DNA of 64,000 nt from Eledone cirrhosa (Eukaryota). Of this stretch, positions 8,361 to 64,000 are shown in pieces. Where the stretch lies: assembly GCA_964016885.1 (NCBI GenBank), contig OZ024740.1, positions 53,878,001-53,942,000 on the forward strand, given 5' to 3'. Position numbers and translations under genes: made by a program. Each line of letters starts with the position of its first letter. The stretch's first letter is position 1. A model generated the notes under the pieces. It had not been told where the DNA came from and did no database searches. It worked only from the letters and a program-made list of their open reading frames with translations.

Positions 8361-8396
8361 TCTTCTGATGAAGGACTAGCGTTCGAAATGTTAAGA
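8361..8396 (+). ncRNA. Minimal type I hammerhead motif (family F2)
   Basis: tctt-CTGATGA-a-ggac tagc gttc-GAAA-tg-TT-aaga; 4-bp stem I; relatives at 11810-11845 (-, truncated) and 52253-52290 (+, decayed). Confidence 0.6.
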
Positions 8397-9579: not shown

Positions 9580-10019
9580 TTTTTACTGCCTCCCCTCTCT
9601 CTGTATCTCTCACCTTCTTTTTACCCCCTCTGCCAGTAACACTCTCTCTCAGCTGGCCTCTTCCTCACACTTCTACTCACTCACTCTCTTCTTCTCCCCC
9701 TCTCTCACTTCCTCCCGTTTGACTTGTGTGAAAACCTTTTCTCGCTCACATCTCACCCAGGACGGATGGTCTGTATCTCTCGTCCATGATTTCACCAAGC
9801 TTAAGCTTATAGATATCATGTAGATATCATGTAGATATCATTCCTATCTTTCCGTTGCAATACCATCTTTGTTTGTTTACATGTCTCGCTCGTTTCACCT
9901 ATTTTACTTGTCCCAATAACTTTATTTAGCTATTGCTCGTACCAACCAGAAGTATATGATTTCTAAAGCGATGAAATACCAATGAAGGTTGGAAGATCAC
10001 TGATGAAGGACTAATTTTA

Positions 10020-10022
<3 letters not shown>
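9580..10022 (+). mobile_element. Non-coding element (family N3) ending in a permuted hammerhead, inserted in (TA)n
   Basis: Pyrimidine-rich body homologous to 38490-38830 (tctctcacttcctcc...tttgtttac.tgtctc...tcccaataac); flanked by TA arrays. Confidence 0.6.
9942..10010 (+). ncRNA. Non-circularly permuted hammerhead motif (copy A)
   Basis: agta-TA-tgattt..gcgat-GAAA(9973)-tacc..agatca-CTGATGA(10000-10006); stem I tgattt/agatca. Confidence 0.6.
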
Positions 10023-10053
<31 letters not shown>

Positions 10054-10153
10054 AAGCATCTACTTCCAAAGTGAAGCGTGTTGGGGTATATATATATATA
10101 TATATATATATAAATATATGTATGTATGTGTGTGGGGGGGGGGTGTACGTGTG

Positions 10154-10184
<31 letters not shown>

Positions 10185-10907
10185 TTTTGTAGTGTATGAG
10201 TCTGTGCGAAGTATCAACAATAAATTAAGACTGCCCCATAAGACCCACAGCCAGCCCGGAGAGAGTGAAATAGACTTAGCAAAACGTTACGGATTAGACA
10301 AATAATTCCTTTAGTTCAATTATATAAATTAGCACAATATTGTGAAAGACAATAAACGTGTTTTCTACGAAAAGGAGAATGTAGGAATACAATTTTATTT
10401 GTGCTTTTATATTTGGTTCTTCTGGGGTTTTATTTTTGCGCACGTCTATGATACTCAACAGGTATTAGCTGCTGTGTGGCTTCCATGCAACATTCGTGGA
10501 TCATCTGAACATTATAAGTATCGTTTAAAAGTAAATTACCCAAAATATAGTGAACATAGGGAATAGGTGAGGTTTTATAATTTAGTTGTTAATAAACTCA
10601 GGATATACATATAGGGTATAAATCGCAGTATGGGAGTTAACAATCGAGTTATTTGAGGTAGTTACAAAGCACTCGATGGTGGGAAAAGTTAATACAATTC
10701 TCGCCCAGTTAAGGAAGTGTCACACTTGAATAAACACATGTGTATATATATACATGAAATCCACCCAGCTTATGCTGACCGGACAACCATGTTGCTTGTT
10801 TTTTTTTCTCATCTTTGGTTCGCTTTTATCCTTCTATATTGTTTACTTGTCCCCCGCTCTTTACGCAATTTACTGGTCCCAATAACTTTTTTTAGTTATT
10901 GCTCGCA

Positions 10908-10976
10908 CCAACCTGAGGTATATGATTTTTAATGCGATGAAATACCAATGATGGTTGGAAAATCACTGACGAAGGA
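10908..10976 (+). ncRNA. Non-circularly permuted hammerhead motif with kink-turn (copy B, apparently intact)
   Basis: ccaac-CTGA-ggta-TA-tgatttt-taatgcgat-GAAA(10939)-tacc-aatGATG-gttgg-aaaatca-CTGACGA(10966-10972). Confidence 0.7.
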
Positions 10977-11056
10977 CTATTTTTATCATATGTAACCCAT
11001 GAGCAACCACGCAGTATTCATCTTTCTTCTCATGTTTGTTATGTATATATATATAT

Positions 11057-14361: not shown

Positions 14362-14410
14362 TATATATATATATATATATATATATAGGAAGAAAGGAAG
14401 AAAGGAGTTT

Positions 14411-14482
14411 CTATCATCAGCTGTAAATGTATCCTGAACCGATGTTTCGGCGCTGAATTACAGGACATCGGTGTAGTTCGGG
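14411..14482 (-). ncRNA. Non-circularly permuted hammerhead motif (copy E)
   Basis: Minus strand ccgatg-TC-ctgtaa-ttcagcgcc-GAAA-catcgg-ttcaggatacat-ttacag-CTGATGA. Confidence 0.75.
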
Positions 14483-15163
14483 TGCGCCCGAGGCCTTTTA
14501 TTAATCAAAAGGCCAGGTGGAAAAGGAGAGAGAAAAGGAAATAGAGGGATAGGAGGAAGAACAGGGGGGGGGGGGGAAGAAGGGGAAAATAGGAAAGGAA
14601 TAGAAGAAAAAAAGTGTACAGATTCCATCGTGGGAAGACACAGGTGAAAGAAACATGCAAAAAAGTAACCGTGGAAAAATAGGGAAAGTTTTGTGGTCAA
14701 CTTTAGCCTGGTGGTCAGCTACGACTCTGAGCTTGTATAATCGTGCTGCCACTCACATAGACAGGAGAAAGTGAGAGAGAGTCACGGGCAACCAAATGTG
14801 AGGAGAAGAAGGGAAAGGGAGATAATCCAGAAGGTTTTTTTTACAACGGTGGTAAAAACATGCCGCAAAGATTGCGGACAGAGAGGCCACCACGCCACGT
14901 GTAAACATGTCAACAATCAAAACCGAACGGATGGATAGAGAGAGAGAGAGGGAGAGAAAAAAAAACGAGAATGAGGAGGAGAAGGGAAGAGAGAAGGGAG
15001 GGTCGATGCGAAAGTGTGGAGGGTACACAGATCGACCAAAGCAGGTAGGGTCACAGCGATTAATACAAAAAGTTATGAAACGAAAGGAGCTGTGTGGTTA
15101 CTAAAAACAATGCTTAGGATGGTGGTTAGGACGGAACAGGGGGAGAAAGGAAGAAGAGAGTTT

Positions 15164-15235
15164 CCATCGTCAGCTGTAAATGTATCCCGAACCGATGTTT
15201 CGGCGCTGAATTACAGGACATCGGTGTAGTTCGGG
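15164..15235 (-). ncRNA. Non-circularly permuted hammerhead motif (copy F)
   Basis: Minus strand cccgaactaca-ccgatg-TC-ctgtaa-ttcagcgcc-GAAA-catcgg-ttcggg-atacat-ttacag-CTGACGA-tgg. Confidence 0.78.
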
Positions 15236-15364
15236 TGCGCCCGAGGCCTTTTATTATTCAAAAGGCCAGGTGGAAAAGGAGAGAGAAAGAGAGAAAAAAA
15301 AGGAGAGAGAAAAGGAAAGAGGGGGAAAGGAGGAAGAACAGGGAGAAAAAAGATGAGTAAGAGA

Positions 15365-55385: not shown

Positions 55386-56399
55386 GATATTAATAAATGG
55401 AAACTATATTTATAAAACCATATTTATTTCATTATACATATTTCAGGGAAACCACATTAAATTATGGTATGCCTTCATCAGACAAAATACAATATATAAC
55501 AGTTTTACAAATAGCTTTGACGTACCCTTTTAAAATGCAACCATTACTTTTGGGGGCTGTCTGGATAGTGATTTGTTTATATTATTTTAATAAGTCATAG
55601 TGTTAAGCACAATTAGAAAAAGACGGAGAGAAAGAAAAAAAGAAAAAAAGAAAAAAAGAAAGAAGACGGAGAGAGAGAAAGAAAACCTGGAGAAATATCG
55701 GAGAGAGAGAGAAATGTATGGAGAAAAGAAAGAGATAAATAAAGATAGGAGGAAATAAAAAAGAAAGAAAAAAGGAAGAAATAAGAAAAACAAAGGAAAG
55801 CAACAGAGATATATCAAGTCATCATACAGATAGAAAAACTCAAGAGAGAGAAATACTATATAGAGAGAGGGGGAGACAATGAAAACTTTATCTCTCTGTT
55901 GCTTTCCTTTGTTTTTCTTATTTCTTCCTTTTTTCTTTCTTTTTTATTTCCTCCTATCTTTATTTATCTCTTTCTTTTCTCCATACATTTCTCTCTCTCT
56001 CTCTCCGATATTTCTCCAGGTTTTCTTTCTCTCTCTCTGTCTTCTTTCTTTTTTTCTTTTTTTCTTTCTCTCTGACTTTTTCTAATTGTGCTTAACACTG
56101 ACTTATTAAAATAATATAAACAAATCACTATCCAGACAGCATCCAAAAGTAATGGTTGCATTTTAAAAGGGTACGCCAAAGCTATTTGTAAAACTGTTAT
56201 ATATTGTATTTTGTTTGATGAAGGCATACCATAATTTAATGTGGTATCCCTGAAATATGTATAATGAAATAAATATGGTTTTATAAATATAGTTTCCATT
56301 TATTAATATCGTATATCTACTCCAAAAACTTGTTGAGTGCTTTATAGCAGTTATTAAAATATTTACTTGTTGTATCCCAACAAATTTAAATAGAACTTT

Positions 56400-56402
<3 letters not shown>
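55382..56402. mobile_element. Fold-back element (F1-related), ~430-bp inverted arms with HHRs at 55426-55488 (-) and 56207-56270 (+)
   Basis: 55382-55812 is the reverse complement of 55890-56315; CTGATGA-aggcataccat..gtggtttccct-GAAA-tatgta-TA; flanked by pure (TA)n. Confidence 0.88.
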
Positions 56403-56489
<87 letters not shown>

Positions 56490-56492
<3 letters not shown>

Positions 56493-57310
56493 ACATACAT
56501 ATATGTATACAGACGTACAGTAGTATGTATATATATATACATACATGCACACATATATATATATATGTACGTATGGATTCACCGAACATTTATTAAAATG
56601 TTTGGTTTGTTTGTAAACAAACAGCCCGAATTAAGCCGTACAGTTTTCGGCAACCTTTTGTTCAACACTGACAAAGGAACGATGAACTAGTTTCAAGCTT
56701 ATTGGCTATCGTCAGCATCGTATACCTTCCTGTCAGATGATTGAACGTTTGAAAGTGTATACTTTCCTTATGCATATTAACGGCTGAGTAGCCTAATTTG
56801 CATATCGAGTCAGTTAGTTGCCCGGCCGTACCGAAAACGATAAATGAAAAAGAATGAAACGAAATTTCATTTCTCACTCTTAGTACGGCTGATACTTAAA
56901 TATAAGTATGTATACGTATATACATATATGTATACAGACGTACAGTAGTATGTATATATATACATACATGCACACATATATGTATATATGTACGTATGGG
57001 TTTACCGAACATTTATTATAATGTTCAGTTTGTTTGTAAACAAACAGCCCGAATTAAGCCGTACAATGTTCGGCAACCATCGTTGCCCTTTTGTTCAACA
57101 CTGACAAAGGAACGATGAACTAGTTTCAAGCTTATTAGCTCTCGCCAGCATCGAATACCTTCCTGTCAGATGATTGAACGTTTAAGTATCAGCCTTACTA
57201 AGAATGAGAAATGAAATTTCGTTTAATTCTTTTCCATTTATCGTTTTCGGTACGCCCGGCCGACTAACTCACTCGATATGCAAATTAGGCTGCTCAGCCG
57301 TTAATATGAG
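56490..57310. repeat. Tandem duplication (~420 bp) whose distal 130 bp is inverted in the second copy
   Basis: 56495-56750 matches 56920-57183; 56773-56900 is the reverse complement of 57181-57308. Confidence 0.85.
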
Positions 57311-57314
57311 TGTG

Positions 57315-57380
<66 letters not shown>

Positions 57381-57555
57381 AACAAGTATGACCCCGACGG
57401 CAGAGCTCAAGCCGTATCGATGGCTAATTCAGGACGTCGAAACGGCTTGAGCTCTGCTGTTGGAGCCATACTTGCTCCTATTACCCACTCTACTACCCTA
57501 AGTATTGAGTACTTGGTGCGTTGTAGTCCATCTGGTTCCTTACCACATTTCCTTC

Positions 57556-58859
<1,304 letters not shown>

Positions 58860-58860
<1 letters not shown>

Positions 58861-59915
58861 GGTGGCTGCCAACTCGTTTTCGAGTATGGCCACTACTTTA
58901 TATCCATGTAGGAGAACCCCTACCGATGCGCTGAACGAGTGTGGCCTTTTAGTCCAGCTAGCGACTTGAAAACTCTGGTACAAACACTACACTTGTGACA
59001 ATTATTGACACCTAGTGCTGGGCCCATGGTACCATGTGACCCAAGGTGTCGTGTGAGATCACTACTCGACCTGCATATCCTTCCACAAACATCACATGTC
59101 GTCGTCTGATGAACACTTATAGCTCCACAGGTGCCTGCTTCCCTGTTCTTGTGCACTCTCAGGTGACTCTTTAGACCTGCCATGGTCAGACAAACCCTAT
59201 TACAGGTCTCACATGTCAGGTTAGGCCGTCTGTCAATGCCTTCGGGAAGGCCAACATGGATTCCTTTCCGGACATATCTTTTTTATGTCGCGTGCCTTCT
59301 TCTTGTTTCCTCAAATAGACTCTTTCCTCTAGCCACTGCTTTCCACCAATGCGATCGGTCGCTAGCGCATGCTTCCCAGTGCTCACAAGGGATGTTACTT
59401 TTCTTGAGTGCCCCCTTGATGCAGTCCTTAAAACGCATCTTGGGTTTGCTCGCGTTCCTTTTTCCCATTTGGTGGTACCATGTGACGACAAGTGCAGAGA
59501 GATCTCCAGATATAAAGCAATGCCTGTGCCGTGAAGCTTTTATAGTGAGCAAAGGCACTGCACAGAGCCAGTCCCACTCTCTTGACCAAGATGATATTTA
59601 CGAAAAAGAAGAACAAGTCAACCTCATTGGATACCATCAGGGTTGCAGGTGTTATATCAGAGTTTTCCTTCTCCTAGAATTCTGCCTTGACAAAGGCTAA
59701 GGGGTCATCTCTCATGGTGATTTTGGATGGCCATTGACTCTTAAGAGCTCCTTTGCCCTTTGACAGGTTTTGTTTTTAGTCCTGCAGGATGTCCAAAGTC
59801 ACCCGCCTCACCAAGAAACCTTGGTGGGGTTGCCAGTTTAGTCGCCAACGACCCGACCATGAGACAGGTTGTACTGGAATACATGTTACCAATAGCACCA
59901 ACTGGTGACCTGACA
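58860..59915 (-). mobile_element. Internally deleted RTE element: 5' region plus ORF C-terminus with three C2H2 zinc fingers
   Basis: GKRNASKPKMRFKDCIK..WEACASDRSHWWKAV (RTE C-terminus), then [51 protein letters not shown]. Confidence 0.82.
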
Positions 59916-60100
59916 TACACATATATACATATATATATATATGTATAAATATATATACATATATACATATATATATACATATATACATATATATATATAC
60001 ATATATACACATATATACATATATATACATATATATACATATATATATATATATAAATATATACATATATATACATATATATATATATATACATATATAC

Positions 60101-60143
<43 letters not shown>

Positions 60144-60198
60144 TACATATATACATATATATATATATACATATATACTTATATATATATACATATAT

Positions 60199-60229
<31 letters not shown>

Positions 60230-60239
60230 CATATATATC

Positions 60240-60295
<56 letters not shown>

Positions 60296-60299
60296 TAGT

Positions 60300-60333
<34 letters not shown>

Positions 60334-60343
60334 CATATATAGT

Positions 60344-60375
<32 letters not shown>

Positions 60376-60440
60376 CATATATAGTTATATATATATACAT
60401 ATATACACATATATACATATATATATATACATATATACAC

Positions 60441-60539
<99 letters not shown>

Positions 60540-60602
60540 CATACATACATACAAACATTCTTACTGCTATCAAAAAACCACTCCCTCAACTATTCTTCTA
60601 AC

Positions 60603-60678
<76 letters not shown>

Positions 60679-60912
60679 TTAGAAACACACAGATACATGC
60701 GGACACACACATATATACATGAATGCATCCGCACCCAACTGTGAGTTAAGGGTGCCAACTTCACCGATGTTGCTCAATGAATGACTGGGACAGACTAATT
60801 CAGTTTGAACCAGACTGAACCAGTATCAGATTTAAAAATACATTATGAAGAGAGAAGAAACATTTAGATATAATTAGTAATAAAATGTATCATACCTAAA
60901 CTGTTCCTAAAT

Positions 60913-61000
60913 TCCTCGACTACGTAGTTTCGTGGCATAAACAAAAACAATATATCAAAGATATAGAGTCCTTGCGAGGTCTGCCGACTTATCAAGAGGA
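60913..61000 (-). ncRNA. Type I hammerhead motif, U3-A8 core variant
   Basis: tcctc-TTGATAA-gtcggca...tgccac-GAAA-ctacgtag-TC-gagga; perfect 5-bp stem I, palindromic stem III, GUC. Confidence 0.78.
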
Positions 61001-61106
61001 TACCTCATTTTACTAGTCTCAAGAACGCGTCTACACGACGTGAGAAAGAATCCCAAAGGCGGAGGGGGAGACAGTCACGCGATATAACGGTCGAGAAACA
61101 GAGCTA

Positions 61107-61167
<61 letters not shown>

Positions 61168-61169
61168 CA

Positions 61170-61510
61170 GATGGAGGCACATGGCTTAGTGGTTAGAGCA
61201 TTGGCCTTGCAATCGAAAGGTTGTGAGTTCAATTCTCAGATCGGGTGATGTGTTGTTTCCTTGAGCAAGACACTTTATTTCACATTGCTCCAGTTTACTC
61301 AGCTGTAGAAATGAGATGATAGGGATTGGGGTCCCTAACATTCCACTGGAAAGTGGTCGTGCAGGTGCCACGGCAAAAAAGCACCCAGCACTCACTGTAA
61401 ATGAGGTTGGTGTTTGGAAGGGCATCCAGCTGTAGAAATCAAGCCAGAATCAGTTCCCGTCCCACCCTTGCAAGCAGGGAAAAAGCGGACGTAAAATGAA
61501 ATGATGATGA
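61170..61510 (+). mobile_element. Full-length CORE-type tRNA SINE (S2) with LINE-like tail and (TGA)n end
   Basis: tggcttagtggttagag A box, gagttcaattc B box, ccttgagcaagacacttt CORE-like block, ..aagcggacgtaaaatgaaatgatgatga. Confidence 0.85.
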
Positions 61511-61579
61511 TATATATATATATATATACATACATATATATACATATATATATATACATATATACATATATATATATAC

Positions 61580-61676
<97 letters not shown>

Positions 61677-61757
61677 CATATATATACATATATATATATA
61701 TACATATATATACATATATATATATATACATATATATACATATATACATATATATAA

Positions 61758-61808
<51 letters not shown>

Positions 61809-61809
61809 C

Positions 61810-61860
<51 letters not shown>

Positions 61861-61949
61861 CATATATATACATATATATAAATATATATACGTACATACA
61901 AAAATTCTTACTGCTATCAAAAAACCACTCCCTCAACTATTCTTCTAAC

Positions 61950-64000
<2,051 letters not shown>

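Follow-up and report, generated by a model that had tools for sequence, protein, structure and literature searches.

The question raised by this locus is whether a motif that recurs in a 64-kb stretch of the 3.0-Gb Eledone cirrhosa assembly (the window) encodes a self-cleaving RNA, how such an RNA would be wired and what kind of element carries it. The preliminary description had proposed a permuted hammerhead with a predicted cut after position 10922, belonging to a sub-family (N3) distinct from another one (N1) and represented by two copies, A and B. All elements that it named for the two copies are present at their positions, the core blocks and stems I and III are borne out by the sequence, and N3 stands as a sub-family separate from N1. 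Judged from sequence, the motif is real, larger than first reported, and represents a known ribozyme in a new wiring. The best explanation, which we consider quite likely, is a predicted six-helix self-cleaving ribozyme at the 3' end of a high-copy tandem repeat that probably derives from the terminal repeat (pseudo-LTR, pLTR) of Naiads, which are Penelope-like retrotransposons.

The whole predicted ribozyme of copy B, six helices and the core, covers positions 10876–10977 of the forward strand. At its 5' end, residues 10876–10879 pair with 10974–10977 to form the closing helix, P0, which appears both in the minimum free energy (MFE) structure and in the covariation. These residues are followed by the junction-arm hairpin (10880–10901), in which 10880–10886 makes 7 pairs with 10895–10901. 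The upstream strand of stem II' (10903–10907) makes 5/5 pairs with the linker that contains GCG (10933–10937). The GCG of this linker and the GGA now placed in P0 had been proposed to make a tertiary contact that replaces stem II; both belong to helices instead, and both helices show two-sided changes. The 5' strand of the I–II joining helix (10908–10913) forms 6/6 pairs with 10953–10958. The stem III strand and the cleavage site lie at 10917–10922: residues 10917–10921 form 5/5 pairs with 10942–10946, the AUA triplet is at 10920–10922, and the cut is predicted after 10922. The 5' strand of stem I (10923–10929) makes 7/7 pairs with 10959–10965. Residues 10938–10946 include U11.1, GAAA (10939–10942) and the partner strand of stem III, and residues 10966–10973 include the CUGACGA core (10966–10972) and A10973, which can pair with U10938 to give a one-pair stem II. 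The motif limits given originally are thus too short, as three helix strands and the hairpin lie at 10876–10913, about 30 nt further upstream; the stretch 10900–10985 omits the hairpin and the first strand of P0. The MFE structure of copy B (z -3.1) contains P0 and the hairpin as well as the I–II helix and stem III, and the remaining two helices are pseudoknots, which are beyond the reach of the MFE program. In the same MFE structure the stem II' strand pairs with the core, an alternative to the ribozyme fold. This pairing of 10966–10972 (N7 is C) with 10903–10907 in family B may represent an off state.

Six copies in the window have GCG before GAAA and RGA one base past the core, with core positions 10000 (+), 10966 (+), 14420 (-), 15173 (-), 37949 (-) and 38789 (+). 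The description of these two elements holds for the window; beyond it GCG is not invariant and differs at loci L169, L178 and L168. Copy A (9910–10011, +) has the same layout 966 nt upstream of copy B, with a predicted cut after 9956. Its stem I has 6 pairs, one of them the G–U pair noted before. Its defects are one hairpin mismatch, one stem III mismatch by which the outer pair is lost, and two G–U pairs, and its folding is no better than that of shuffles (z +0.1). An N1 copy (15161–15276, -) is a full six-helix match in which position 10.1 comes from the upstream strand, and its tandem copy 753 nt downstream (14408–14523, -) has breaks in two helices. An N2 copy (37937–38040, -) has GAGA in place of GAAA, and its inverted copy (38709–38801, +) has the strands before the core deleted. 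The copies with cores at 14420, 37949 and 38789 are thus damaged. The stems of N3 and N1 had been regarded as independent, and this does not hold: the two sub-families are homologous and alignable via intermediate sub-families, so their stem differences are covariation within one family.

Core words are frequent in this sequence. The window contains 34 CUGANGA words, compared with a shuffle mean of 16, and a repeat-rich genome of this kind could produce a chance match. The controls argue strongly against this. A descriptor that combines the block order (site, GAAA, CUGANGA) with the six helices fits fully at 3 places in the window, and 50 shuffles (3.2 Mb) yield no such fit. Across 236 loci (771 kb) it gives 152 matches, compared with 0 in reversed and 1 in shuffled sequence; this count is not a frequency, because most loci were picked for the motif. 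Genome-wide, the pattern GAAA-N18-30-CTGAYGA-GG has 14,874 + 18,419 = 33,293 matches, with some minus-strand places doubled and unrelated families included, and the reversed control has 1,855 + 1,707 = 3,562. Twice the forward count minus the control suggests about 26,000 genomic copies. By the descriptor, the pattern and the covariation controls the motif is more than chance, and we give a chance match almost no credence. DNA searches with six sub-family queries returned 363 to 2,296 first-look candidates each, 40 of which were scored per query; among these, family B copies match copy B at 98–99%. Rfam gave no hammerhead match at the gathering score, and no hammerhead family among 132 matches with E<=10 at six loci. 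A canonical hammerhead of type I–III was rejected, as copies A and B have no GAAA within 120 nt past the core and Rfam is negative.

Genome copies were collected and covariation was evaluated, as the preliminary description had envisaged. The alignment has 17 representatives placed by sequence alone, 12 that passed the descriptor and 5 from pattern hits; of 14 clusters, four single-copy or duplicate N5-like ones were given one row or omitted. The named structure is paired in 85.7% of 575 cells. Two-sided changes occur in 24 of the 34 pairs and in all six helices, a number reached in 0/500 shuffles, a control that ignores the kinship of the rows. Partner strands slid out of register give just 4–13 two-sided pairs. 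A measure of further pair types shows no excess over shuffles (476/500). Both the pairing and the invariance of the core are in part a consequence of how the rows were chosen, because 12/17 rows passed the descriptor and all come from core-containing queries. Stem I has two-sided changes in 6/6 pairs and the I–II helix in 5/6. Stem II' is paired in 98.5% of cells over 4 pairs, its outer pair being formed in 8/17 rows, and the hairpin is the weakest helix, with 77% paired. The core letters CUGANGA, GAAA and the NUH site are invariant in 17/17 representatives; in two N1-type rows the alignment shifts the site U to another column, and it is conserved when these rows are checked individually. The core lies between stems I and III as in a hammerhead, and A15.1–U16.1 is present. 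With a profile restricted to the upstream module, where no core letter lies, 33 flank copies are recovered; both core blocks are intact in 24 of them, one change off in 6 and deleted or displaced in 3.

In the proposed fold, stems I and III would be normal hammerhead helices, and stem II would consist of one pair (A10973–U10938) that opens into a four-way junction with P0, the hairpin and stem II'. The second strand of stem II' would come from upstream of the cut site and continue into the helix that ties stem I to stem II, as in type SGC. P0 and the hairpin would project from the A9/10.1 side of the hammerhead core. The helix stacked at positions 10.1–11.1 that defines a hammerhead stem II is provided by the upstream strand together with the one-pair start. 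The base past A9 pairs with 11.1 in 13/17 rows (A–U, U–A, G–C or G–U). In the other four rows, all N1-type, the upstream strand gives a G–C pair in place of this pairing, which would shift the junction inwards by one pair, to the gap between A9 and position 10.1. A viroid hammerhead tolerates a single additional base at this place. The wiring of the motif could be obtained from an SGC ribozyme if its ends were joined and the molecule reopened inside the two-helix insert.

Among the closest known systems is HRIMA-1 (type SGC), compared here by its description in the available text of PMC10085705. The block order site–GAAA–CUGANGA is the same, the link from stem III to the I–II helix is similarly short, and the 3-nt link from stem I to II and the I–II helix are found in the tested SGC ribozymes as well. 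Other features differ. In our motif a junction that adds two helices breaks stem II after 0–1 pairs and thereby interrupts block C, the stem II and I–II strands lie upstream of the cut rather than at the 3' end, and the motif is present in the genome of an animal, with a copy number in the tens of thousands. Hammerhead variants with extra helices exist (PMC13725137, in the part available). One could still read the motif as a plain SGC hammerhead whose stem II is ordinary and contiguous, and treat the upstream pairings as incidental, given the common block order, the pair past A9 in 13 representatives and the single-pair stems II described in PMC3088659. This we find very improbable, since the strand past CUGANGA gives at most 2 contiguous pairs with the strand before GAAA in 17/17 representatives, and the upstream strands covary and always travel with the core.

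The six-helix motif sits at the 3' end of a repeat with Penelope-like anatomy. The host repeat of copy B (10753–11040, +, 3' limit approximate) is 5'-truncated and ends in (TA)n, as defined by BLAST to the tandem copies L026 and L028; that of copy A (9580–10020, +) runs into (TA)n at 10021. Host units are about 500–750 nt long and often tandem, with the motif at the 3' end and a (TA)n terminus. Tandem spacings fall at 500–574 nt in 17/35 cases and at 750–774 nt in 3. A (TA)4+ run lies within 160 nt downstream of 121/146 copies, compared with 347/2000 random places, and an inverted partial partner is present in 24/160 loci. The repeat thus has the tandem units, 5' truncation, inverted partial copies and microsatellite targets of Penelope-like elements and retrozymes. 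Hammerheads of Penelope-like pLTRs and non-LTR retrozymes also lie near the 3' end of tandem non-coding units, with the same truncation and inverted partial copies (bioRxiv 10.64898/2026.07.22.740005; PMC11167929). As described in the available text of these sources, those hammerheads are type I (CUGANGA–GAAA–site), whereas the present motif is non-circularly permuted and matches no Rfam model. An ORF attached to a copy occurs at 0/110 and 0/50 loci, and motif scans of 160 loci for a parent gave Penelope-type peptides solely from unrelated neighbours.

The window holds other repeats of related interest. Broken Penelope-like ORFs, with a reverse transcriptase (RT) followed by a C-terminal GIY-YIG region, lie at 23750–25318 (-), 25872–27884 (+) and 34179–35210 (-), and all three have Pfam support except for the piece 23750–24262. 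Canonical-order cores, with GAAA close behind CUGANGA, occur in other Penelope-like families at 8365 (+), 23465 (-), 33788 (-) and 37549 (+). One repeat family has CUGAUGA followed by a conserved hairpin-like stretch, at 523 (+), 22819 (-), 22951 (+) and 55481 (-). Another, at 46695–46830 (-) and loci L166, L176 and L177, has GAAA before CUGAYGA and falls outside the six-helix layout. The regions 41000–48000 and 56000–64000 are very long (TA)n-rich arrays with GC down to 6%.

Which Penelope-like clade the repeat belongs to is addressed by the published Naiad consensi (PMC8557442). Naiads have (TA)n targets and, in the available text of that study, no canonical hammerhead; eight have a 'half core', and the only annotations are 'HHR_core' or 'HHR_half_core'. 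The consensi were built without regard to any ribozyme. We read the last 300–600 letters of 53 of the 54 by eye, and everything said below of their ends is on that basis. The six-helix layout is clear in 7/53 (Obim, Ovul, Amil, Aacu, Anas, Chem-3 and Movir-2), from octopus, coral, hydrozoan and box jelly hosts; these count as four independent lineages, the two octopus sequences being near-identical and the three coral ones likewise. It is partly present in Bfor (stem I of 2 pairs) and Esco (two helices mismatched). Six nematode Naiads (Nbra-1, Nbra-2, Nbra-3, Hcon, Hpol and Asuum) end in clean type-CSG hammerheads with the I–II helix. The ends of Smim and Dst-4 read as SGC with block C uninterrupted, and those of Ptep, Sdum, Dst-1 and Dst-2 show parts of such an SGC. 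The other 32 consensi show no such layout in the stretch read, and many of these stretches are too short to decide. The octopus consensus has a 12-nt hairpin-loop sequence in common with N2 and a 6-nt linker in common with copy B. In the bivalve and hemichordate consensi the ends read have no CUGANGA and carry two other conserved structured motifs.

In E. cirrhosa itself Naiads are represented by remnants. An exact pattern made from the 3' end of the octopus Naiad consensus has 0 matches in the genome, and an RT-motif pattern has 3, two of them decayed Naiads. Protein searches of the genome (150 of 3256 candidates scored) found Naiads that are all decayed, with a longest open frame of 298 aa; 20 weaker matches gave no intact ORF, and three equal-scoring ones are duplicated remnants. 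No ORF with the N-terminal GIY-YIG and RT of the Naiad clade is attached to the repeat, and remnants of it occur only elsewhere. In 22 stretches downstream of Naiad remnants the descriptor found no intact motif. Seven Naiad remnants align on a site–GAAA–core stretch near the 3' end, four of them with UUGANAA, and the stem II region of the UUGANAA remnants is unlike that of the motif studied here. Old Naiad 3' ends at L223, L224, L225 and L185 have a decayed site–GAAA–core stretch in which the core is UUGANAA (U3–A8) and GAAA is preceded by a hairpin. This core variant also occurs in Sdum, the consensus from a spider. The U3–A8 variant is known from natural hammerheads (PMC3088659). The repeats studied here share with Naiads the (TA)n targets, the pLTR anatomy and the ribozyme layout at several 3' ends; unlike the published Naiads they have no ORF, and the genome search found no intact Naiad. 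The mobiliser of the young families may be a Neptune-type element, or a Naiad family outside the scored candidates.

The predicted ribozyme would act on tandem transcripts. Read-through RNAs of tandem units would be cut to unit-length RNAs (about 500–550 nt, or 750 nt for N1), which may be circularised. A Penelope-type reverse transcriptase would copy uncut or circular RNA in trans and insert it into (TA)n, with reverse transcription starting about 115 nt downstream of the cut site. Internal initiation on uncut RNA is described for a Poseidon element in the available part of PMC11167929. We think there is a good chance that a lone monomer self-cleaves at the predicted site after A10922. Alternatively, the fold could be real and cut only as a dimer or with the help of a protein, the lone monomer being slow or inactive. 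The Poseidon hammerhead is described as protein-assisted, with no reads ending at the site in the data reported there (PMC11167929), SGC ribozymes are slow (PMC10085705, as far as its available text goes), tandem and inverted copies make pairing between units possible, and the MFE structure of copy B has the alternative pairing with the core. This alternative is disfavoured by the closure of all six helices inside one unit of about 100 nt and by a stem III of 5 pairs with no palindrome, and we consider it unlikely. Less probable still is a non-catalytic relic, in which the junction persists because the reverse transcriptase uses it for recognition or priming, and the core letters are passengers. 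The copies do have their 3' end shortly downstream of the motif, Poseidon insertion in vitro proceeds with no need of cleavage as described in PMC11167929, and no accumulation of 5' ends is seen at the predicted cut (0/25 copies with a 3'-only query; 4/71 overall within -3 to +4 nt). A relic is hard to reconcile with a core, site U and GAAA that stay fixed as the helices change two-sidedly, in distant phyla as well, and with the natural U3–A8 swap in four of the seven old Naiad remnants. The reading that we prefer is the self-cleaving monomer.

From its sequence the motif is likely the self-cutting RNA that Naiads were reported to lack, because the same layout is seen by eye at published Naiad tails, and for much of the Naiad clade it is probably the ribozyme that had seemed absent. 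In the available text of PMC10085705, the six hammerhead permutations are defined on the assumption of uninterruptible blocks, SGC and CSG are validated in vitro, SGC is described only from metatranscriptomes, CSG is known from two sequences only, and no non-circular permutation is reported from the genome of a known organism, apart from one doubtful GCS case. The literature that we covered, thin for subscription papers, contains no report of permuted hammerheads in Naiads or of such a junction. SGC, CSG and the form studied here are cyclic rearrangements of one another, and tandem retroelement repeats may thus offer a testable route of interconversion. We lean towards a broader view in which non-circularly permuted hammerheads have their genomic home in Naiads, with CSG in nematodes, SGC in arthropods and the junction-opened wiring in cephalopods, cnidarians and a ctenophore; in this view the junction-opened wiring lies outside the six permutations thought possible, is active and reaches tens of thousands of copies in the genome of a single animal. 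If true, this would contradict the published absence of hammerheads in Naiads, which PMC8557442 used to argue, in the text available, that ribozymes may be dispensable to the elements or parasites of them. It would also contradict the view that non-circular permutations are confined to metatranscriptome RNAs with uninterruptible blocks, and it would provide many natural covarying sequences for the study of a four-way junction in place of stem II.
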